A program made the position numbers and the translations under genes. From NCBI GenBank assembly GCA_021734865.1, contig JAIPIC010000001.1:4166-68165 (forward strand): 64,000 nt of DNA, written 5' to 3'. The stretch comes from Candidatus Woesearchaeota archaeon (GTDB lineage: Archaea; Nanobdellota; Nanobdellia; Woesearchaeales; JAIPIC01). How positions within the stretch are numbered: position 1 is the first letter of the stretch; every line of letters starts with the position of its first letter. Under the pieces are notes generated by a model. That model did no database searches, was not told the origin of the DNA, and was given only the letters and a program-made list of their open reading frames with translations. Below, one piece after another: positions 2,339 through 63,784 of the stretch.

Positions 2339-2812
2339 ATGGACCCGATAACAAAAGATTTCAATGAAATGGTGCAAAAGATAGGGAATCCGGTCGGTGC
2401 AGATTCACTTGTAATGTCAATATATGCTATCTTATACCTTGCACCTGGACCGGTTGCTATGGAAGACCTGGCTAAAACAACAGGATACAGTCTTGCATCA
2501 GTTAGCAGTAAAACAAAGATGATGGAAACCATGGGTCTTATTGAAAGAAGGAATACACCTGGCACAAGAAAGCTGTATTATTACATGGAGAAAAATCTCA
2601 CTGAGATGTTCAAGAATTTCTTTATCAAAAAAGAGAAGACGCAGGTTGCAGTTGCAAAACAAATGCTTCCACCCATAATTAAAAAATATGAAAACGAAAA
2701 ATTATCAGATGAAGATAAGATTAAACTTAAAAATATGAAAGAATATTATAAGTGCATACTTAAATTTGAGAAAATCATACAGGAAATTGTCACGATGATT
2801 GACAAGCAATAA
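2339..2812 (+). CDS. winged-helix transcriptional regulator (MarR/PadR/ArsR-like), probably the regulator of the adjacent ABC cassette
   Basis: 157-aa protein. LAPGPVAMEDLAKTTGYSLASVSSKTKMMETMGLIERR reads as HTH plus wing, with a basic C-terminal helix. Its last 14 nt overlap the ABC ATPase start. Confidence 0.5.
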   Translation: MDPITKDFNEMVQKIGNPVGADSLVMSIYAILYLAPGPVAMEDLAKTTGYSLASVSSKTKMMETMGLIERRNTPGTRKLYYYMEKNLTEMFKNFFIKKEKTQVAVAKQMLPPIIKKYENEKLSDEDKIKLKNMKEYYKCILKFEKIIQEIVTMIDKQ

Positions 2813-3515
2813 GAAGATGAAAAAAGCCATAATAAAACTGGACAATGTTTGGAAGACATACACAATGGGCAATGTCAAGGTCCATGCTTTGAGGGGACTC
2901 AGTCTGACAATTAAGGATGGTGAGTTCGTATGCATATACGGTCCTTCAGGCAGTGGGAAGTCAACTGCGATGAATATGGTCGGTTGTCTTGATATTCCAT
3001 CTCAAGGAGATATCTTCCTCAAGGGAAAGAATATCGCTCACCTCTCAGAGTCTGACCTTGCACAGATCAGGGGAAAGACGATTGGATTCATTTTCCAGCA
3101 GTTCAATCTTATTAATACACTATCAGCTCTTGAGAATGTTATGCTTCCGATGGTCTTTCAAGGTTACAGTGAACAAGCAAGGCGTGCTCGGGCAATCAAA
3201 CTGCTCGACATGGTTGACTTGGCAAAGCGTATGGACCATAAGCCAACTGAACTCAGCGGTGGTCAGCAGCAAAGAGTTGCTATTGCTAGAAGTCTGTCAA
3301 ACAATCCTGAAGTGATACTGGCTGATGAGCCCACTGGTAACCTGGACTCAAAGACCGGGAACAAGATCATGGATTTCCTGAGAACCATGAATAAAAAGGA
3401 AAAGAAGACTATCATAATGGTCTCACATGACCAATCATTGGCAAAATATGCTGACCGGATCGAGTATCTTCGAGATGGAAGCATCATTGAAACCAAAAAC
3501 AATGGAAAAAGGTGA
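2799..3515 (+). CDS. ABC transporter ATP-binding protein, MacB/LolD family
   Basis: Walker A GPSGSGKST, Q-loop, ABC signature LSGGQQQRVAIARSL, Walker B ILADEPTGNLD and H-loop VSHD are all present. Confidence 0.92.
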   Translation: MTSNKKMKKAIIKLDNVWKTYTMGNVKVHALRGLSLTIKDGEFVCIYGPSGSGKSTAMNMVGCLDIPSQGDIFLKGKNIAHLSESDLAQIRGKTIGFIFQQFNLINTLSALENVMLPMVFQGYSEQARRARAIKLLDMVDLAKRMDHKPTELSGGQQQRVAIARSLSNNPEVILADEPTGNLDSKTGNKIMDFLRTMNKKEKKTIIMVSHDQSLAKYADRIEYLRDGSIIETKNNGKR

Positions 3516-3519
3516 TAAT

Positions 3520-4794
3520 ATGAAAAAAAAATTGATTGTGATATTGTTGCTTGCTGCAACAATCATTAGCATATTCGGATATACTGTACATGGCGATGGC
3601 ACTTTTGCAAATATTGAAAGTACGCTGCTAAGCCAGGATCCTGATCCGTGTGAACCTGGCAGTTTTGTCGAGGTGAGATACAAGATAGAGAATGTGGGCA
3701 ATTCAGTTGCCAAAGATGTTCAGTTTGTCCTTACACCTGAGTATCCGTTCAGTTTCTTCCCGGGTGAAACTGGTGCCAGAAAGTTGGGAGACCTATATAT
3801 GAGACAGATAGGAAATGATGCTTATGTCCTCTATTATCGTTTGAAGGTTGATTCTGATGCAACGGACGGAAGTTTCCCAATACGGATGAAATATTCTGTC
3901 AATGGGGGGAATTACATTAATCTTGAAGAAGATATGCTCAGAGTACGACCGACTAATGCTATCCTATATATCGAGAAGGTAGAACAGGAGCCAGAGATAT
4001 TCACTCCCGGTGACAAGTCAAAACTGAGTTTACGTTTGAAGAATACTGCTGGGACCTCCCTGAAGAACATCAAGGTGGTAATATCCAATGTCCAGGCAAC
4101 AGGAGCAGCTACTCCATCACCGCTTCCTATGTCACCTGTTGGTTCATCTAATGAGATGATCATTCCAAAGCTTGGTTCAAATCAAGTCACGAATGTGGTT
4201 TATGAGATGATTGTCGATCCGGATGCAGAATCAAAAATATACAAGGTTCCTATAACTTTGTCCTACAGTGACAACTTTGGCCACAATTATACTAAAGAAG
4301 AGGTTATCAGCATCGCTGTGCATGATAATCCGCAAATCTTTGTCAAACTGGATGACACAGACATCAAGATGAGCGGTCAGACAGGCAGTGTTAGTATCAA
4401 GGTAGTAAATAGGGGTCTTGAAGACATTAAGTTCGTGAGTGTGAAGCTGGATGATTCTGATGCATTCAAGAAGATCGGTACTGATGAGATATATTTAGGT
4501 AATATAGATTCTGACGACTACGAGACTGCTGACTTCAATATACAAGTCCAGGATACTGGAAAAGTAAGTCTTCCAATAGTTATTACCTATATGGATTCGC
4601 TAAATACAGAATACATGGATACGATCTCGCTTGATCTAAACACCTATAGTCAGGAAGAATTAGAGCAACTGGGGATCTCTCAACAAGGTAACTCCAACGG
4701 AATGATCATTGTTGTAGTAATTATTGTACTTGGCCTGGTTGTCTGGTGGTTCATGAAGCGCAAGAAGAACAACAAAGACAAGGAGATCGAATAA
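3520..4794 (+). CDS. COG1361/CARDB-like cell-surface protein of the ABC cassette (signal peptide, three Ig-like repeats, C-terminal TM anchor)
   Basis: The ORF track starts this gene at 3427, overlapping the ATPase by 89 nt. The ATG at 3520 has a GGTGA RBS 5 nt upstream and sits right after the ATPase stop, so it is the more likely start. The product begins MKKKLIVILLLAATIISIF (signal peptide), contains repeated P...V.V.N.G...A..V patterns (CARDB-like), and ends IIVVVIIVLGLVVWWFMKRKKNNK (TM plus basic tail). Confidence 0.65.
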   Translation: MKKKLIVILLLAATIISIFGYTVHGDGTFANIESTLLSQDPDPCEPGSFVEVRYKIENVGNSVAKDVQFVLTPEYPFSFFPGETGARKLGDLYMRQIGNDAYVLYYRLKVDSDATDGSFPIRMKYSVNGGNYINLEEDMLRVRPTNAILYIEKVEQEPEIFTPGDKSKLSLRLKNTAGTSLKNIKVVISNVQATGAATPSPLPMSPVGSSNEMIIPKLGSNQVTNVVYEMIVDPDAESKIYKVPITLSYSDNFGHNYTKEEVISIAVHDNPQIFVKLDDTDIKMSGQTGSVSIKVVNRGLEDIKFVSVKLDDSDAFKKIGTDEIYLGNIDSDDYETADFNIQVQDTGKVSLPIVITYMDSLNTEYMDTISLDLNTYSQEELEQLGISQQGNSNGMIIVVVIIVLGLVVWWFMKRKKNNKDKEIE

Positions 4795-4818
4795 GGAAGA
4801 ATAACTCTTCCTTTTTTT
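4795..4818 (+). terminator. hairpin ggaagaATAACTcttcc followed by T7 tract between the surface-protein gene and the first permease (possible intra-operon attenuator)
   Basis: Read directly from the sequence: a 5-bp stem, then a T-run, 4 nt before the ATG at 4822. Confidence 0.3.
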
Positions 4819-4821
4819 AAT

Positions 4822-6045
4822 ATGATACTGGAATACGTCCGGATGGCTGTCCGGAATCTGGGCGGTAGGAAGCTTAGATCATGGCTGACAATGCTTGGCA
4901 TATTCATCGGTATCGCTGCAGTGGTCTCTCTTGTTGGGATGGGAGAAGGGTTAAGGATAGCTATTACCTCCCAATTTGGTTTTGTCGGCTCAGATGTGCT
5001 GACAGTCACTGCTGAAGGGCTTGCGACTGCAGGTCCACCTGGCACAGGAGCACCAAATCCACTTTCTGATAACTTGGCTGCAAAGATTGAAAAAATACCC
5101 GGTGTCGAGGCTGCTATTAATAGATACTTGAAGTCCGGGACTCTTGAATTCAACAACAAGCAGGGCCTCGGTTTTGCTATGTCCGTTCCTGAAGGTGATA
5201 ACCGGAAGATTATGATGAAGATGCTCAACCTTGAGGCTGAGCAAGGCAGGCTGCTCAAGGATGGAGATGGACGGAAGGTCCTTCTTGGAAATTCGTACCT
5301 TGATAAAAGTCAGTTTGGCAAGCCCATATCGTCTGGTGACTATGTATACCTTAATAGTATAAAATACCAGGTCATAGGGATAATGAAAAAGAAAGGTAGT
5401 TTCCTGTTCGATCAGGCTGTGCTTGTTAATACCAAGCAGTTGCTTGCAGATTTCGGTGATGACGGCACTACTAATATCATCGCTGTCAAGGTGATTGATG
5501 AAAGCAGGATCGATAAGGTCAAGGAAGATGTGGAAAAGCTTCTTCGAAAAGAGAGGGACGTCAAGGTCGGCGAAGAGGATTTTTCGGTTTCAAGCCCAGA
5601 ACAGACTTTGGAGCAGATGAATTCAGTCTTGGGTGCTGTGCAGTGGTTCATCGTCATCCTTGCAAGCATATCCCTTGTGGTGGGAGGGATTGGCATAATG
5701 AATACTATGTATACATCTGTCCTCGAGCGGACTAAAGAGATAGGAATATTGAAGTCTATCGGTGCCAGGAACAGAGTCATCTTCCTGCTGTTTTTCCTAG
5801 AGTCAGGTTTTCTTGGCCTGGTTGGGGGAATAATCGGTGTAATTTTGGGAATCACACTTGCATACGGACTGGCATATCTTGGAAGAACATTGCTAGGCGC
5901 AGATCTGATTCAAGCAAGCGTCTCAATGGGATTAATATTTGGTTCGTTGAGCTTTTCATTTGTTATTGGCACTTTGGCAGGATTGCTTCCAGCATATCAG
6001 GCTTCAAGAAAGCATCCTGTTGATGCATTAAGGTTCATAAAATAA
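4822..6045 (+). CDS. ABC transporter permease, FtsX/MacB-type
   Basis: N-terminal TM (LTMLGIFIGIAAVVSLV), a large extracytoplasmic domain, and the C-terminal FtsX three-TM bundle (VLGAVQWFIVILASISLVVGGIGIMN ... RTKEIGILKSIGA). Confidence 0.85.
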   Translation: MILEYVRMAVRNLGGRKLRSWLTMLGIFIGIAAVVSLVGMGEGLRIAITSQFGFVGSDVLTVTAEGLATAGPPGTGAPNPLSDNLAAKIEKIPGVEAAINRYLKSGTLEFNNKQGLGFAMSVPEGDNRKIMMKMLNLEAEQGRLLKDGDGRKVLLGNSYLDKSQFGKPISSGDYVYLNSIKYQVIGIMKKKGSFLFDQAVLVNTKQLLADFGDDGTTNIIAVKVIDESRIDKVKEDVEKLLRKERDVKVGEEDFSVSSPEQTLEQMNSVLGAVQWFIVILASISLVVGGIGIMNTMYTSVLERTKEIGILKSIGARNRVIFLLFFLESGFLGLVGGIIGVILGITLAYGLAYLGRTLLGADLIQASVSMGLIFGSLSFSFVIGTLAGLLPAYQASRKHPVDALRFIK

Positions 6046-6057
6046 AAGGTCCATAAA

Positions 6058-7272
6058 ATGATGCAATATGATGAGATGAAATATTCGATAAAGAACATCT
6101 GGAGTCGGAAGACTAGAAGTTTTCTTACTTCTCTGTCTATCCTTATCGGTGTTATGTCTGTATTTGTAATTGTCAGTTTTGGTCTTGGACTCAACTATTA
6201 TGTTGACACGATAGCGGCTGAGGCTGGAGTTGACAAGCTGTATGTACAAGCAGCAGGCATAGGTGCTCCTGGAACTGACGATACATTTGCAATAACTGCA
6301 ACAGATATCAGTTTCATCAGTAAGATTAAGGGCGTAAACGAGTTTGCAGGAATGTACCTGAATATCGGGAAGATGGAGTCTGGGAATGATAAGCTATTTG
6401 CTTTCGTTGCCGGATTTGATATGGACAAGCAGGACTTCATCGATGAAGTGTTTACTGTTTCAGTCGAAAAAGGTAGAAATCTCAAGAGTGGAGAAGTAGG
6501 AAAGGTTATGCTCGGGTATAACTATCAGGTCAAGGACAAAGCTTTCAGCAAACCAGTAAAGCTGGGGGACAAGATTGATATTAATGATATGCCATTTGAG
6601 GTTGTTGGTTTCTATGAAGAAGTAGGCAATCCATCTGACGATGTGAATGTTTATATGACAGACAAGGCGTTTGAACTGCTTTTTCCAGATCACAAGGATA
6701 ATTATGGATATGTGATGTTGCAGGCCGATAAGAACGAGAATGTATCCGAACTGGCTGACAAGATTAGTGAGAAATTCAGAAAATTCCGTGGAGAAGAAGA
6801 AGGCAAGGAGACATTCCATGTGCAGACTTTCGAGGATGCTCTTGCTGTGTTCTCTTCTGTTACAAATATCATCGTGATAGTACTCGCATTGATCGCTGCC
6901 ATATCAATCTTTGTGGCAACCGTTAATATCATGAATACCATGTATACTGCAGTTCTTGAGAGAACAAAAGAGATTGGTACTATGAAAGCGGTTGGTGCAA
7001 GAAATAGCGAAATCATGTTCATGTTCATCTTTGAATCTGGTGTTATTGGCTTAATTGGCGGAATCATCGGAGTGATCTTTGGTTATCTGATCGCATCTGC
7101 AGGAGGAAGCCTTCTTGCACAACTGGGCTATTCAATGTTTGCACCAATCTTTCCATGGCAGTTGTATGCTGCATGTATAACTTTTGCATCTGTTATCGGA
7201 GCAGCAGCAGGTGTGCTTCCTGCGATGCAGGCTGCAAACCAAAAACCTGTCGACGCATTGAGATATGAATAA
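6058..7272 (+). CDS. ABC transporter permease, FtsX/MacB-type (second copy)
   Basis: Same architecture as the preceding gene (RTKEIGTMKAVGARN; three C-terminal TMs). It is a paralogous pair typical of MacB-like heterodimeric permeases. Confidence 0.85.
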   Translation: MMQYDEMKYSIKNIWSRKTRSFLTSLSILIGVMSVFVIVSFGLGLNYYVDTIAAEAGVDKLYVQAAGIGAPGTDDTFAITATDISFISKIKGVNEFAGMYLNIGKMESGNDKLFAFVAGFDMDKQDFIDEVFTVSVEKGRNLKSGEVGKVMLGYNYQVKDKAFSKPVKLGDKIDINDMPFEVVGFYEEVGNPSDDVNVYMTDKAFELLFPDHKDNYGYVMLQADKNENVSELADKISEKFRKFRGEEEGKETFHVQTFEDALAVFSSVTNIIVIVLALIAAISIFVATVNIMNTMYTAVLERTKEIGTMKAVGARNSEIMFMFIFESGVIGLIGGIIGVIFGYLIASAGGSLLAQLGYSMFAPIFPWQLYAACITFASVIGAAAGVLPAMQAANQKPVDALRYE

Positions 7273-58640: not shown

Positions 58641-60736
58641 AAATAAAAAGAGGTGCTATTTGTATACTGATACTAATTGGTATCATGTCTGTCGGATACT
58701 TTGAAGTATTTGCTGCAAACGAAGATATAGCTGCAAGCATAAGAAATCAGTCAAGCAACTTAGTTATCAATATAACCTGTGGTAACAATAGATGTGAAAC
58801 TGGAGAGAATGAATATAATTGCCCTCAAGATTGTTCAAAGTCGCCATTTGACTTTAAGATGAGTTTTACTAATCCGCAGATATGGCTTGGTGCTGAAGAG
58901 AAGATTCATTTCATTGAAATACAGAATAATCTCAAAACAGAAATAACTGTTAATGTGAATTTAATAGGGGACACTCTTAACAGACTAATTCACATTAACA
59001 AGACGACTTACGTTATTAAATCAAGAGAGACTGGGATTGTCAATCTTGTTATTCGGGCCTGGGATGTTACTCCGGGAGTCTATAATGGATATATAAACTT
59101 AAATTCTGCTAAGAAGAATGTCACGATACCTGTTGGAATACAAGTATATGATGAAATAAAGGATACTATTGATGTTCAGTCTAACATTATCGGAGATGAA
59201 ATCGAAAATGATGGGTCAATTAAACTCCATATCACAATTTATAATCCTAATTTCAAGACAGTCAATATGTCAATATCATATTATATTAATAATTCTGTCG
59301 ATGGGCTGATGATTTATAATTCAAGTGAGTATATGTTAATAAATTCTTCAAGAGTATTGGTCAGGGATTTTGACTTGAACAGTTTCAATCTGACCAACAG
59401 GTTTTATTCACATAATATGACAGTTAAACCTGGAACATTAAGAGAAGTGCCACCAAGCGACTATTATGTCACCGTAAAATTCAACCTTGATAACCAAACG
59501 ATCTATCTGACTGATACTGTGATAATAAGCAAGCCTTTCTGGACAAAAGACAGAATATGGGTAGTGATTGGAAGCATATTGTTTATTGCTATAGGGGGGG
59601 GAGGACTATTTGGCTACAAAAAATATATGGAACTAAAAAAGAATAAAGCTAGGTATGTTTTCCCAATGGATTATAGTAAATTACCACAACAGGATAATTA
59701 TTCTTTGTGGTTAGGATTGATTGCAGAAACCAAAAAAAAGGCCTTTTATAGTATGAATGATTTGACAACCCATGCACTTGTTGCTGGTTCTACTGGTTCT
59801 GGTAAATCTGTTTCTGCCTCAGTAATTGTGGAAGAGGTTCTTGAAAAAAAGGTACCTGTAATCATTTTTGATCCAACCAGTCAGTGGACTGGATTTGTAC
59901 GGCCGTGCAAAGATAAAAATTTATTAAAATACTACCCAAAATTTAGTCTTACAGATGACGATTCCAGACCATATAAAGGTTTAATCTATGATGTAAAGAG
60001 TCCTGACGTCCAGATTGATTTCAAGAAATTTATGAATCCTGGAGAAGTGACTGTATTTAATTTAGGTAATTTAAAGGTAGGAGAATATGATATTGCAACG
60101 AAAAATATTGTTGATACGATATTTCATATGAGATGGGAAGAATCTCCTGAACTCAAGATGTTATTGGTATTTGATGAGGTGCATAGGCTACTTGAGAAAT
60201 ATGGTGGTAAAGGAGGATATATTGCGCTTGAGAAAGGAGCAAGGGAGTTTAGGAAGTGGGGAATCGGCATGATAATGGCATCACAGGTATCTGCAGACTT
60301 CAAAGAGTCAATAGCTGGGAACATCCTTACAGAAGTACAGTTGAATACAAAGTCTATGGAAGATATTAAGAAAATTGCACAAAAGTATGGGACTGAATTT
60401 TCAGAGAGGATCTCTAGAGAAGGTATTGGTGTTGCTATGATCCAGAATCCAAAATATAATGATGGTAAACCATGGTTCATCAATTTCAGACCTACTTACC
60501 ACTCACCACATAAGATTGCAGCTGAAGAGCTTGAGATGTATGCTAAGTTCACCGATCAGCTCAGCGAGATTGAAGTTCAAATTACTAAGCTAAGAGAGAA
60601 GAAGGTTGATACTTCTGATATAGAAATGGAAATTAAGTTAGCCAAGGACAAGTTAAAAGAAGGTCATTTCAGGATGGCAGAAATTTATATAAATGGATTA
60701 TTTGAAAATTTAAACAAATTGAAAGGAAAGAAATGA
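58637..60736 (+). CDS. mini-paralog of the giant protein C-terminus (699 aa): signal peptide, CPEDC-type Cys module, juxtamembrane Ig-like domain, TM helix, HerA/FtsK/VirB4-type ATPase
   Basis: The start ATG overlaps the giant stop (ATGA). MKIKRGAICILILIGIMSVGYFEVFA is a signal peptide, IWVVIGSILFIAIGGGGLFGY is the TM helix, and the ATPase region is about 90% identical in amino acids to giant aa ~15440-15740. The ectodomain is homologous to giant residues after 56700 (SPFDFKMSFTNPQI vs FPFDYELDFLNPEV). Confidence 0.9.
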   Translation: MKIKRGAICILILIGIMSVGYFEVFAANEDIAASIRNQSSNLVINITCGNNRCETGENEYNCPQDCSKSPFDFKMSFTNPQIWLGAEEKIHFIEIQNNLKTEITVNVNLIGDTLNRLIHINKTTYVIKSRETGIVNLVIRAWDVTPGVYNGYINLNSAKKNVTIPVGIQVYDEIKDTIDVQSNIIGDEIENDGSIKLHITIYNPNFKTVNMSISYYINNSVDGLMIYNSSEYMLINSSRVLVRDFDLNSFNLTNRFYSHNMTVKPGTLREVPPSDYYVTVKFNLDNQTIYLTDTVIISKPFWTKDRIWVVIGSILFIAIGGGGLFGYKKYMELKKNKARYVFPMDYSKLPQQDNYSLWLGLIAETKKKAFYSMNDLTTHALVAGSTGSGKSVSASVIVEEVLEKKVPVIIFDPTSQWTGFVRPCKDKNLLKYYPKFSLTDDDSRPYKGLIYDVKSPDVQIDFKKFMNPGEVTVFNLGNLKVGEYDIATKNIVDTIFHMRWEESPELKMLLVFDEVHRLLEKYGGKGGYIALEKGAREFRKWGIGMIMASQVSADFKESIAGNILTEVQLNTKSMEDIKKIAQKYGTEFSERISREGIGVAMIQNPKYNDGKPWFINFRPTYHSPHKIAAEELEMYAKFTDQLSEIEVQITKLREKKVDTSDIEMEIKLAKDKLKEGHFRMAEIYINGLFENLNKLKGKK

Positions 60737-62823
60737 AAGATTCAATTATGATTGCAAAGGAGAAACTGGCCCAAAGCGAGTTTGACAGTTTTGATATTGA
60801 TAATATTATTGAAAAGATTGTCATGAAGAGGCGGGCTTCAAATGTCCAGAGTTCTGTTGAACAGAAAGATCAAGTTATCGGATCAAAGAATAATTCAACA
60901 CAATCATCACAGATATCAACTCAGGATAGTACTGTAACAGATACTGTTAGTGGGAATGTCAAAGAGTCAAAGGGTGTACCTGAAGGAACTACTCAAAATG
61001 ATTCATCAAAAGGTGCCGATAATGGAACAGCAAATATAAATGTAATATCAGAAGATGATATTAAAGAAATAATTAAAGGTGCTTTAGTAAGAGGAGTTAA
61101 AATTAATTCTATTTCGGATCACTTAATTCAAAGAGGATTAGACAAGGACCGTTGTAATAATATTATTCATGATTCTTTCAGCAGTATTGATAGGAATCAA
61201 ATAATTGCTGAACAACAAATTGAAGACAAGAAAAAGGCTAATGAGGGTGATAATAATATGTCGCAAAACGAGGATAATCAGAATCAACCAGATGAAAAAG
61301 TAAGCAAGGAATCAGATGCTGAACAAAAAAATGTAGAGGAAGCAAAGGAGCAAACTGATGAACCATCTAAAGACAAACAAGGTAAAGATGCAGAGGATTA
61401 TGATCGAAGCAGAGATGCATTCAAACCAGGAGAATTAGCTGAATTGGAAAAGGCTGAAGCAGAGAAAAATAAAAGTCTAATGGATAAGCTATTCGCGAAA
61501 AAAGAAAACACTGAAAAAAATGATGACAACGGTAAGGAAGTGGTAATCGAGCGAGATGTTTTTGATGGTAGTTATTTAGATAGGGCTACAAAAGCAGAGA
61601 TCAGAGAAATAACCAACAGGATAATGGAAGAATATAAGAAAAGAACAGATGACATACAGTTAATGGTTGAAAAGGTTGATGGTAAAATAGCAAGGGAGAA
61701 GGAAGTTGATGAAGGTCTGAATATGAGAATCTCTGATCTTGTTGAAAAGATTGGTGAACTCCGTTCAACAATAATGGGCAGGGAGAGATTTTTTGACAAG
61801 ATGGAAAATGATTTTGAATCAATGAAAGATGTTATTCACGATCTGAAGCCGGAGAGAATAAAGAAAGAATTTGAAGATAAAGAGAAGTCAATACTCCAGT
61901 TGGACGCCAAAATTGAAAAAGCAACTAATGTTCTTGAGACGATGTCAGTTGATCTGAAAAAATACAAAGAAATAATGACTAAGATTGTAAGTTATGAAAA
62001 TTTGCTTGCTACTCTAGAGGACTTAAATAAGAAAGTCAAGAAAATTGATGAGACTGAAAGATATATGGAAAAGATAGGAGGACGTTTGGAGACTTCATAC
62101 TCTGATCTTAACAAGAAATTGGGTACTATAGTAACTCATGATGAAAAACTTAGGGGATTTGAAGAAATGACAAAAGAGTTCACGAAGAATATTGACCTTC
62201 TCCAAAATAAACTTGAAAAGAAGCTCAATAAAAATGATATTGAGAAAGTGTACCCCGAATTTGAGAAGAAATTCAATGAACATTTTGGTAAGATCAATGA
62301 TGAGATTGCAGTGCTTAAAGATGCCCTTTTCAGAAAGGAAGTTAATGAATCAAATAGTAGCTCTATTGTCTACCCAAACCAAACCACTGATCAGACAATC
62401 AGTAACTCAGGAGTTTCTTCACCTGGAAACCAGAAGGTCTCAGATTCCAGCAGTGCGACCTTAAATGCTCCAGAAAATAGTGTTCACGTTGAAAAGGCTC
62501 CTAGTCAAAACCAAAAATCCGTAAGCCCACAAACACAAAACCTATCTAGGGAATCTTCAACACCTAGTAGCGCACCTAAGAATGAGAACAAGATGAGCAT
62601 TAAGGAGAAAGAACTAGTGAATGCATTAATTAAACATATCGAAGCAAAAATTGATAGTGATCAAGCACCTCAATATTATAAAAAAGCTGTCGATATGATT
62701 ACAAAATACCCTGAAGATCCTTCAATCAACCAACTGAAGAACAAACTGACTGAAATAAGATCAAAGATGCTAGGATCAGATGGTCCTGAAATTAAATTCA
62801 GTTGGGGAAACTGGAATAAGTAA
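60733..62823 (+). CDS. acidic coiled-coil protein (696 aa), probable cytoplasmic partner/scaffold
   Basis: ATGA overlap with the paralog stop. There is no TM helix or signal peptide. It has S/T/Q-rich linkers, a long E/K-rich region and heptad-like segments (aa ~280-520, e.g. LMVEKVDGKIAREKEVDEGLNMRISDLVEKIGELRS). Confidence 0.75.
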   Translation: MKDSIMIAKEKLAQSEFDSFDIDNIIEKIVMKRRASNVQSSVEQKDQVIGSKNNSTQSSQISTQDSTVTDTVSGNVKESKGVPEGTTQNDSSKGADNGTANINVISEDDIKEIIKGALVRGVKINSISDHLIQRGLDKDRCNNIIHDSFSSIDRNQIIAEQQIEDKKKANEGDNNMSQNEDNQNQPDEKVSKESDAEQKNVEEAKEQTDEPSKDKQGKDAEDYDRSRDAFKPGELAELEKAEAEKNKSLMDKLFAKKENTEKNDDNGKEVVIERDVFDGSYLDRATKAEIREITNRIMEEYKKRTDDIQLMVEKVDGKIAREKEVDEGLNMRISDLVEKIGELRSTIMGRERFFDKMENDFESMKDVIHDLKPERIKKEFEDKEKSILQLDAKIEKATNVLETMSVDLKKYKEIMTKIVSYENLLATLEDLNKKVKKIDETERYMEKIGGRLETSYSDLNKKLGTIVTHDEKLRGFEEMTKEFTKNIDLLQNKLEKKLNKNDIEKVYPEFEKKFNEHFGKINDEIAVLKDALFRKEVNESNSSSIVYPNQTTDQTISNSGVSSPGNQKVSDSSSATLNAPENSVHVEKAPSQNQKSVSPQTQNLSRESSTPSSAPKNENKMSIKEKELVNALIKHIEAKIDSDQAPQYYKKAVDMITKYPEDPSINQLKNKLTEIRSKMLGSDGPEIKFSWGNWNK

Positions 62824-62940
62824 GTCACATAAAAAAATGAATTCCCGTTCCGCTTTATCTCCAAGCTGAATTTTAAGATCAAAGATACTCGAGCATCACA
62901 GAAATCTTCAATGGCATGAAATAGTCATCTCACAACTTAA

Positions 62941-62961
62941 ATCTCACAACGTGAGATTTTC
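62941..62961 (+). terminator. hairpin ATCTCAC-AAC-GTGAGAT followed by TTTT, about 120 nt after the coiled-coil gene stop. The direct repeat atctcacaac is also present at 62927.
   Basis: Read directly from the sequence. Confidence 0.4.
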
Positions 62962-63310: not shown

Positions 63311-63784
63311 TTGAATCAAAGCAGTAAACTGGAGGAATTTATTATAGCTGTCCGTAGACTCAAGACTGTTTCTAATCTATCTGATTCAGATATTATCAAC
63401 ATAGCAAAAAAAGAGATTGTAAGAAAACCAAGCATACCAATATCCATCTTTGCATCAAATCTTGGTATACTCGAGACTGCTGTAAAGTATCTAAAGGAAG
63501 CTTTTGGTTTGACTTATGCAAAAATTGCTCTTATGTTAAATAGAGATCAAAGAACCATATGGGTATGCTACAATAGGGCTTGCGCAAAAAACAGTAAGAA
63601 GTATGAGATGGGGTTTTCAACAGGCGATATTGAAATTCCAATAGAAATACTGGCCAATAGAACACTGTCACCCCTTTGTGCAGTATGTAATTATCTTTTT
63701 AATCTTGGTGTGACAAAGACCACTATTGCAAAATTACTCAATAGGAAAGTGCAGAATATCTGGTATGCAATAAAGAAAGGATGA
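63311..63784 (+). CDS. small DNA-binding protein with two tandem sigma70-region-4/LuxR-like HTH repeats. Its apparent start codon is TTG.
   Basis: There is an internal duplication: IALMLNRDQRTIWVCYNRA versus IAKLLNRKVQNIWYAIKKG. Each is preceded by L..L...(V/C).YL...(F/L)G(L/V)T, like HTH region 4. The first in-frame start after the upstream stop is TTG at 63311, and there is no in-frame ATG until aa ~75. Confidence 0.4.
   Translation: MNQSSKLEEFIIAVRRLKTVSNLSDSDIINIAKKEIVRKPSIPISIFASNLGILETAVKYLKEAFGLTYAKIALMLNRDQRTIWVCYNRACAKNSKKYEMGFSTGDIEIPIEILANRTLSPLCAVCNYLFNLGVTKTTIAKLLNRKVQNIWYAIKKG

Follow-up and report, generated by a model that had tools for sequence, protein, structure and literature searches.

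Among the gene products of DPANN symbionts, the giant proteins of the SPEARE type are the most striking, and they are the leading candidates for mediating host attachment or transfer. In Nanohaloarchaeota, where they were described, these proteins combine huge extracytoplasmic adhesin regions with a transmembrane (TM) segment close to the C-terminus and a cytoplasmic part that is conserved, and similar sequences were found in Woesearchaeota, Aenigmarchaeota, Micrarchaeota and Altiarchaeales (Hamm et al., 2019; PMC6642349). The cytoplasmic part was later re-annotated as a VirB4/TraG-like ATPase that is followed by a coiled-coil tip, and a second ATPase gene was identified directly downstream in a study that proposed the assembly to act as a secretion ‘straw’ (Reva et al., 2023; PMC10266531). 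The published models disagree, with the proteins being viewed as an invasion tool in one case and as a secretion device in the other. Here we have analyzed a stretch of 64,000 nucleotides from the metagenome-assembled genome (MAG) of a Candidatus Woesearchaeota archaeon (contig JAIPIC010000001.1, positions 4,166 to 68,165 of the forward strand), to which we refer as the window. It contains three consecutive genes encoding a giant protein, a short paralog of its C-terminal part (the mini-paralog) and a soluble coiled-coil protein termed ORF3, which is the subject of this study. We find that ORF3 is very probably a third part of the SPEARE-type cell-surface machine that has so far been overlooked. 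We found no mention of a third, coiled-coil gene in either of the two studies (PMC6642349, PMC10266531), with the latter restricting its names for downstream genes to the second ATPase and a more distal ‘proteasome activator’, and a full-text literature search found no description of a coiled-coil gene residing beside such ATPases.

The giant protein and the mini-paralog constitute an adhesin-ATPase system of the published SPEARE type, which had remained unrecognized in the original prediction made from the letters of the window. Both proteins share a common plan consisting of an N-terminal signal peptide or TM segment, an adhesin ectodomain, which is huge in the giant, one further TM segment and a cytoplasmic P-loop ATPase of the DUF87/HerA type of about 370 residues, which in both cases ends in a conserved helical tail. 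The ATPase domain matches DUF87 (E~1e-11), HerA_C and TrwB in domain libraries. The mini-paralog shares 61% identity with the C-terminal ~670 residues of the giant, with a value above 90% across the ATPase, and its gene is located directly downstream, as is the second ATPase gene in published loci. The ATPase domain and its tail are common to the window and to loci from Nanohaloarchaea, Aenigmatarchaeota and others, and the ATPase relatives from Nanohaloarchaea/Nanohalobium MAGs (L052, L063, L073) are also accompanied by a coiled-coil gene. The window differs from the described systems in its host, a Woesearchaeota MAG, and in the size of the giant, whose 15,809 residues compare to at most 9,409 in published cases. 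Latter length belongs to SVXNc_0300, which was called the largest protein of any cultivated archaeon (PMC10266531). The giant of the window also exceeds the 8,553-residue SPEARE protein of Ca. Nanopetramus and may be among the longest predicted archaeal proteins.

Results

Linkage of the coiled-coil gene to the ATPase genes

The genes of the giant, the mini-paralog and ORF3 are all located on the forward strand and linked in series by four-nucleotide ATGA overlaps. The start codon of ORF3 overlaps with the TGA stop codon of the mini-paralog, as had been noted in the original prediction, and the junction between the giant and the mini-paralog (58637-58640) has the same form, with both sites sharing the context GAAATGAAA. 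The ORF3 protein is identical to the NCBI hypothetical protein K9M79_00090 from a Ca. Woesearchaeota MAG, where it is encoded on a contig of 94 kb.

The association between the two types of genes was investigated from both sides. In a set seeded with an alignment of five ATPase domains and confined to one genome per GTDB species, we identified at least 465 relatives of the ATPase and examined the best 79 loci by a local hidden Markov model (HMM) scan. These loci originate from Aenigmatarchaeota, Nanohaloarchaea/Nanohalobium, Nanobdellati/Nanoarchaeota, Hydrothermarchaeales and some MAGs labelled as Methanosarcinales or Heimdallarchaeota. In 68 of the 79 loci, the last ATPase gene is directly followed on the same strand by a member of the coiled-coil family. 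Two further loci offer no room for the gene and nine lack it (68 of 77 informative loci). The genes are closely spaced, with a median of 4 nucleotides from the stop codon of the ATPase to the opening of the coiled-coil reading frame. They overlap or are separated by at most 30 nucleotides in 36 of 74 junctions, six of which show the same ATGA overlap. The order found in the window, where a giant or large ATPase protein is followed by a short ATPase paralog and the coiled-coil protein, is observed in 13 of 85 loci, counting the window itself. In the opposite direction, the profile of the coiled-coil family yielded 59 metagenome loci, and a DUF87 ATPase is encoded upstream on the same strand in 48 of the 52 that are informative (92%). 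Upstream ATPases are also found in all five loci of relatives that were identified independently by protein search. The link between ATPase and coiled-coil gene is thus near-obligate in both directions, and the assignment of ORF3 as third component of the cluster, which had been made in the original prediction, is borne out by homologous clusters that generally carry the gene.

Across 107 loci, the identities of ATPase domain pairs (mean 57%) are correlated with those of coiled-coil core pairs (mean 28%) at r=0.79, a value that was not reached in any of 999 permutations, and this co-divergence fits inheritance as one module. Downstream of the coiled-coil gene we did not find any conserved gene. 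The largest cluster of downstream open reading frames comprises 18 loci and encodes other surface proteins, mostly in convergent orientation. Since no other conserved gene follows, the coiled-coil gene closes the module.

Several single MAGs contain two or three separate loci with ATPase and coiled-coil genes (L011/L025/L045, L031/L036, L035/L051 and L077/L081), and the module has thus been duplicated as a unit within genomes. The ATPase is also found in MAGs labelled as Hydrothermarchaeales (L042, L067 and L071, including a contig of 1.9 Mb), Methanosarcinales (L009, L011, L016, L025, L045, L076) and Heimdallarchaeota (L026). It is in these cases mostly followed by the coiled-coil gene, which is absent in L067 and L076. 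The module may thus extend beyond DPANN symbionts, with mis-binning of the respective contigs being possible.

Definition of the coiled-coil family

An initial protein search identified only three relatives of ORF3, which align without gaps to its residues ~300-505 and have the motifs IGELRS and KPE in common. With a profile constructed from these four sequences, a search of 1.84 billion representative proteins retrieved 946 representative clusters at 50% identity with E<=1e-3, of which 307 remain at E<=1e-30. ORF3 belongs to a large and unnamed archaeal family that is defined by a specific helical core of about 220 residues with heptad pattern and polar invariant residues. The core, whose conservation extends over several archaeal phyla, carries the signatures E-x-I-G-E-L-R-S and K-P-E, with invariant or nearly invariant positions corresponding to E313, E338, G341, E342, R344, P373, E395 and N423 of ORF3. 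All of these residues are present in ORF3, which scores with 219.6 bits against a profile of 40 family sequences. None of the 153 retrieved family members contains a TM-like segment. Pfam searches of 68 members did not provide any match over the core and detected only flanking SHOCT domains in six of them. ORF3 itself has no domain match in Pfam, NCBIfam, PHROGs and PADLOC, except for a sub-threshold hit to ASRP in NCBIfam. Sequence-profile searches of the PDB with the core at E<=1 yielded coiled coils of a generic kind only (GCN4, sigma-1 and designed ones), Foldseek searches with the model of the core gave no match in the PDB and BFVD, and the full-length model of ORF3 gave none in the PDB at E<1.

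Outside the core, the family is highly variable. Hairpins resembling SHOCT domains, which we defined as a short helix-G-x-I-[ST]-x-x-E-[YF]-helix motif, precede or follow the core in about 45% of 226 members as judged by a regular expression. An N-terminal acidic motif, EENVI[TS]PEEFxxLEKKE, is found in 59 of 244 members (about 24%, including those of L012, L017, L028, L058, L104 and L109), where it is often followed by a GLF/KKK patch, and is a candidate for a short binding peptide. We also considered the N-terminal stretch SEFDSFD of ORF3 as a divergent copy of this motif, an assignment that is unsupported. Some family members contain very long Q/P-rich regions. Three proteins of about 1,000-1,100 residues (P0131, P0147 and P0151) share a conserved C-terminal segment of about 70 residues (IFDIIKGASVGK...GVPYIKI), which looks like a small beta-rich domain and is absent from ORF3.

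Architecture of ORF3

The sequence of ORF3 contains neither a TM segment nor a signal peptide, with the mean Kyte-Doolittle hydrophobicity over 19 residues reaching a maximum of 0.57, and the whole protein has a pI of 5.2. Its composition changes along the chain. Residues 36-104 are rich in S (19%), N (12%), T (12%) and Q (10%), residues 166-280 in K (17%), E (17%) and D (13%) with a net charge of -12, and residues 536-620 in S (25%) and N (13%). A hydrophobic periodicity of 3.5 residues is in the single sequence raised only over residues ~295-500. In the alignment of 40 family sequences, the conserved hydrophobic columns of each of the three core segments peak most strongly at this same period, exceeding the 95th percentile of shuffled controls.

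The structure of the isolated core predicted by AlphaFold2 (pLDDT 85.9) consists of long helices encompassing residues 2-84, 87-211 and 217-244 in core numbering, with the first break coinciding with the nearly invariant proline. In the prediction of the full-length protein, a helix (residues 1-36), a four-helix domain (107-171, pLDDT ~90), the helices of the core (291-559) and a three-helix domain (623-679, pLDDT ~90) are separated by stretches of low confidence that are probably disordered. The N- and C-terminal domains have no detectable homologues in other family members and no match in Pfam. Structural matches of the C-terminal domain are restricted to MIT- and TPR-like folds and are non-significant, with the best one, to the MIT domain of Sulfolobus Vps4 (2v6y, E=1.2, probability 0.51), being obtained from a model that in this region is effectively based on a single sequence.

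These features are largely as anticipated in the original prediction, which had described a protein devoid of TM helix and signal peptide, with S/T/Q-rich linkers, a very acidic E/K-rich stretch, about 250 residues of heptad-like coiled coil, corresponding to a heptad-patterned helical core of about 245 residues, and a small helical domain at the C-terminus. The proposed short N-terminal domain requires revision: the N-terminal part is helical but it consists of a helix at the very N-terminus (1-36) and a separate domain comprising residues 107-171.

A portable tail at the C-terminus of the ATPase

As was already surmised for the two proteins of the window, giant and mini-paralog both end in a helix following the ATPase, which we find to be part of a conserved tail. 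In the mini-paralog, the conserved motif of this tail reads ...D-T-x-D-I-E-x-E-L-K-L-A-K-D-K-L-K-x-G-x-F-R-M-A-E-I-Y-I.... Six loci contain an additional gene of 260-340 codons between those of the ATPase and the coiled-coil protein, whose product consists of a signal peptide, a small ectodomain, a TM helix and a short cytoplasmic end. Four of these products, which we term micro-paralogs, have an end that is matched by the profile of the ATPase tail (E 4.5e-8 to 8e-3) although the ATPase domain is missing, whereas in the similar intervening genes of the loci L042 and L044 the tail was not found. The presence of the tail on proteins without ATPase, encoded beside the coiled-coil gene, defines it as a portable and separable module. 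Such portability would be expected if the tail served as docking handle for a common partner, for which the sequences of the micro-paralogs provide circumstantial support.

Functional interpretation

The near-obligate gene association strongly supports a functional link between ORF3 and the ATPase genes, and we infer that the protein may physically bind to the ATPase tails. We consider it fairly probable that ORF3 is a dedicated cytoplasmic adaptor or scaffold subunit of the SPEARE-type adhesin-ATPase machine. In such a mechanism, the core would form a homo-oligomeric coiled coil beneath the membrane, with flexible acidic and S/T-rich linkers carrying small terminal modules, which would be the private helical domains in the Woesearchaeota protein and SHOCT-like hairpins or the acidic EENVITPEEF peptide in its relatives. 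The coiled-coil protein would dock on the cytoplasmic ATPase modules, most plausibly via their conserved C-terminal helical tails. In this way, giant and mini subunits would be bridged or clustered, or a client would be recruited to them. The interpretation given in the original prediction is supported in part: the functional link is borne out, whereas there is no specific support for stator or cytoskeleton as terms for ORF3.

Several observations weigh against this adaptor function. Conservation of the ATPase tail is just as high in the nine loci without a coiled-coil gene, and the tail does thus not strictly depend on a partner gene next to it. A candidate pairing, in which the tail would itself adopt a SHOCT-like hairpin interacting with the SHOCT-like motifs of the family, was rejected in light of an hhalign probability of 0.6% and the absence of this motif in ORF3, where neither Pfam, the regular expression nor an HMM of the family motif detected it. 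The N-terminal acidic motif is equally not detectable in ORF3 and, since its terminal domains in turn lack homologues, the flanking modules proposed to be involved in docking are not conserved. The co-divergence of ATPase and core would also be expected from shared ancestry alone. We did not find any fusion of ATPase and coiled-coil protein among 153 representative proteins or in 85 scanned loci, and the low pTM of the predictions (0.34 for the core and 0.25 for the full-length protein) leaves helix packing and oligomeric state undefined.

An alternative role would be that of a substrate or effector, which is exported or injected by the HerA/FtsK/VirB4-like ATPase. The gene adjoins a translocase-type ATPase, in parallel to the helical-hairpin substrates of the WXG/LXG type that are encoded beside the FtsK-like ATPase EssC/EccC in type VII secretion, and the long helices of the core with their conserved proline break and the long disordered regions could be reconciled with such a function. 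Effectors of unknown identity that are secreted by such loci were also proposed as part of the ‘straw’ model (Reva et al., 2023; PMC10266531). We nevertheless regard this role as improbable, as typical effectors change fast whereas the core is conserved over several archaeal phyla and co-diverges with the ATPase. Moreover, ORF3 contains neither a WxG motif nor a Pfam match to WXG/LXG proteins, family members, with 380 to more than 800 residues, far exceed the size of WXG100 proteins, each locus has one such gene and no conserved chaperone gene, and the single TM helix per ATPase subunit does not make an export channel evident. It also appears improbable that the core acts as a central stalk or regulator, which inserts into or caps the hexameric ATPase ring to couple or gate ATP hydrolysis in the manner of FliJ in FliI or the gamma subunit in F1, instead of serving as a scaffold for several rings. 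The tight translational coupling suggests matched production of both components, and a specific contact with a ring would be in keeping with the long helices, their conserved turn and the invariant polar residues. However, rings of the HerA/FtsK type normally thread a substrate through their pore, the core (~220 residues, with helices of up to ~125 residues) is much longer than known stalk hairpins and did not match FliJ, YscO or gamma subunits in its fold, and a stalk would leave the tail of the ATPase-less micro-paralogs unexplained.

Co-transcription, a position that is always after the last ATPase gene and the flexible multi-module build would also be compatible with an assembly or quality-control factor, which assists in the membrane insertion, oligomerization or turnover of the giant chains while remaining outside of the finished machine. 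The gene is equally present where the ATPase proteins contain only ~600-700 residues (for example in L054 and L056) and the protein lacks a chaperone-like domain, which makes us consider such a role as quite improbable. The view of ORF3 as an unrelated neighbor, that is a generic coiled-coil, SMC-like or cytoskeletal protein, could draw on the fact that it shows only weak matches of the coiled-coil type (ASRP with 18.8 bits, GCN4, sigma-1 and designed coiled coils). It is contradicted by synteny and effectively excluded, with more than 130 independent loci showing that the association of the genes is near-obligate in either direction. The SMC-like identity, which the original prediction had named as an outcome that would speak against a functional link, was equally not found, as the protein contains a specific conserved core motif, has neither Walker A motif nor SMC head and falls far below the ASRP threshold of 300 bits. 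We thus consider a chance neighborhood as highly improbable.

The adaptor function that we favor could be extended to a larger role, which we regard as unlikely at present. In this case, the coiled-coil family would be the cytoplasmic organizer of a three-part machine that is specific to archaea, where it would link ATPase rings via their conserved tails in an ordered array below the membrane at the site of host contact. If true, the family would provide the intracellular part that is still missing from the apparatus for DPANN attachment and transfer, and define a new kind of secretion/adhesion system, distinct from type IV and type VII.

Features of the window and adjacent regions

The positions of the described elements are compiled in Table 1. 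Upstream of the giant, the region 2339-7272 encodes a MarR-type regulator followed by an ABC ATPase, a CARDB-domain protein and two permeases of the MacB/FtsX type, and constitutes a MacB-like export operon in proximity to the surface-protein locus. About 120 nucleotides past the stop codon of ORF3, a hairpin (62941-62960; ATCTCAC-AAC-GTGAGAT) is followed by TTTT and may mark the end of the three-gene transcript. It was not called in a scan for consensus terminators, although such scans for sigma-70 promoters and terminators are uninformative for an archaeon. The decamer ATCTCACAAC is present twice in this region, at 62927 and 62941. Further downstream, the 16-nucleotide motif TTAATTAATAGTAAGT occurs four times between 63040 and 63306, with two copies being exact and two containing two mismatches. 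All copies are located inside the gap of 490 nucleotides between ORF3 and the next open reading frame (63311..63784), there are none elsewhere in the window, and none of 100 shuffled sequences reached four matches. The gene that follows may use these copies as operator or promoter repeats.

Table 1. Positions of features in the window and of tail-bearing micro-paralogs in related loci. Residue numbers refer to the respective protein.
Feature	Position	Strand	Remarks
Giant SPEARE-type protein, 15,809 aa	11211..58640	+	TM at ~aa 15417 after signal/TM and a huge ectodomain with NHL repeats and others
Cytoplasmic ATPase of the giant	57519-58637	+	Same tail as in the mini-paralog
Mini-paralog, 699 aa	58637..60736	+	Signal/TM, ectodomain of ~280 aa and TM at ~aa 307, followed by DUF87/HerA-type ATPase in the cytoplasm
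Helical tail of the mini-paralog, C-terminal 75 aa	60509..60733	+	Candidate docking site
ATGA start/stop overlap of mini-paralog and ORF3 (translational coupling signal)	60733..60736	+	Purine-rich AAAGGAAAGAA just before
ORF3, soluble coiled-coil protein, 696 aa	60733..62823	+	ATG start; no TM; 219.6 bits against family HMM
N-terminal helix, aa 1-36	60733..60840	+	pLDDT ~70; homologues not detected elsewhere in the family
Disordered linker rich in S/N/T/Q, aa 37-102	60841..61038	+	From composition and model
Four-helix domain, aa 107-171	61051..61245	+	pLDDT ~90; private to ORF3; no Pfam match
Acidic K/E/D-rich region, mostly disordered, aa 172-290	61246..61602	+	One helix, aa 234-257
Conserved family core, aa 288-531	61594..62325	+	Heptad-patterned long helices; only part common with relatives
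Signature I-G-E-L-R-S, aa 340-345	61750..61767	+	E338, G341, E342 and R344 (near-)invariant in family
Pro373 (K-P-E)	61849..61851	+	Nearly invariant; predicted helix breaks there
S/N-rich linker, aa 536-620	62338..62592	+	Low confidence/disordered from ~aa 583
C-terminal three-helix domain, aa 623-679	62599..62769	+	pLDDT ~90; private to ORF3
Tail-bearing micro-paralogs, 300-340 aa	L018 9055-10068; L027 6431-7435; L035 7681-8643; L050 9082-9996		

Discussion

Our analysis strongly supports the view that the coiled-coil family, which is very widespread and had so far gone unremarked, is the third component of an archaeal surface system that is known yet poorly understood. As a soluble partner that is nearly always co-encoded, it offers a tractable component to purify, localize and cross-link, and the family profile provides a marker for finding such loci. 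Models of the mechanism now have to account both for an elongated coiled coil in the cytoplasm and for a portable ‘handle’ at the C-terminus of the ATPase. With its 946 clusters at 50% identity and neither a Pfam nor an NCBIfam model, the family also constitutes a gap in current annotation.

Besides the SPEARE system itself, certain features are reminiscent of other protein families. The DPANN coiled-coil proteins (CCPs) such as NAR1_03220 and NAR1_01690, which are encoded beside genes resembling those of type IV pili (Hamm et al., preprint; 10.1101/2023.02.24.529834), are similarly soluble, distributed across DPANN, located next to a secretion-type ATPase and proposed to play a role in host interaction. 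A weak similarity to the coiled coil of sigma-1 is also found for the present family (6gao/6gaj, E 0.06-0.13). Both groups are set apart by gene context, which consists of the pilus genes CpaF/TadC in case of the CCPs and of DUF87 adhesin-ATPases in the family described here. With the archaea-specific SMC-related protein (ASRP, NF045487), ORF3 has a long heptad coiled coil in common, and the match (E 4.9e-4, 18.8 bits compared to a cut-off of 300) spans coiled-coil residues only. An assignment as SMC or ASRP was rejected and ORF3 contains neither a Walker A/B head or hinge nor a match to SMC_N. SHOCT hairpins (PF09851) are found on both sides of the core in many relatives, but they form part of the flanks, rather than the family-defining core, and ORF3 is without them. 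We have also dismissed ORF3 as type VII substrate of the WXG100/LXG kind, whose hairpin comprises ~100 residues compared to ~220 in the core, with WxG motif and Pfam match both lacking, and as a relative of ESCRT-III, PspA or Vipp1, as the profile search of the PDB detected generic coiled coils only and Foldseek gave no match for the core.

Helical partners are known for several ring-forming ATPases, including TraM, which binds to the C-terminal tail of TraD, FliJ, which acts together with FliI, and the WXG100 proteins associated with EssC/EccC. Although the relationship to these proteins is confined to functional analogy, with no sequence or fold similarity to ORF3 being detected, they share with the system described here a small or elongated helical protein that is encoded beside a RecA-fold hexameric membrane-associated ATPase and that acts via contacts with its tail or ring.

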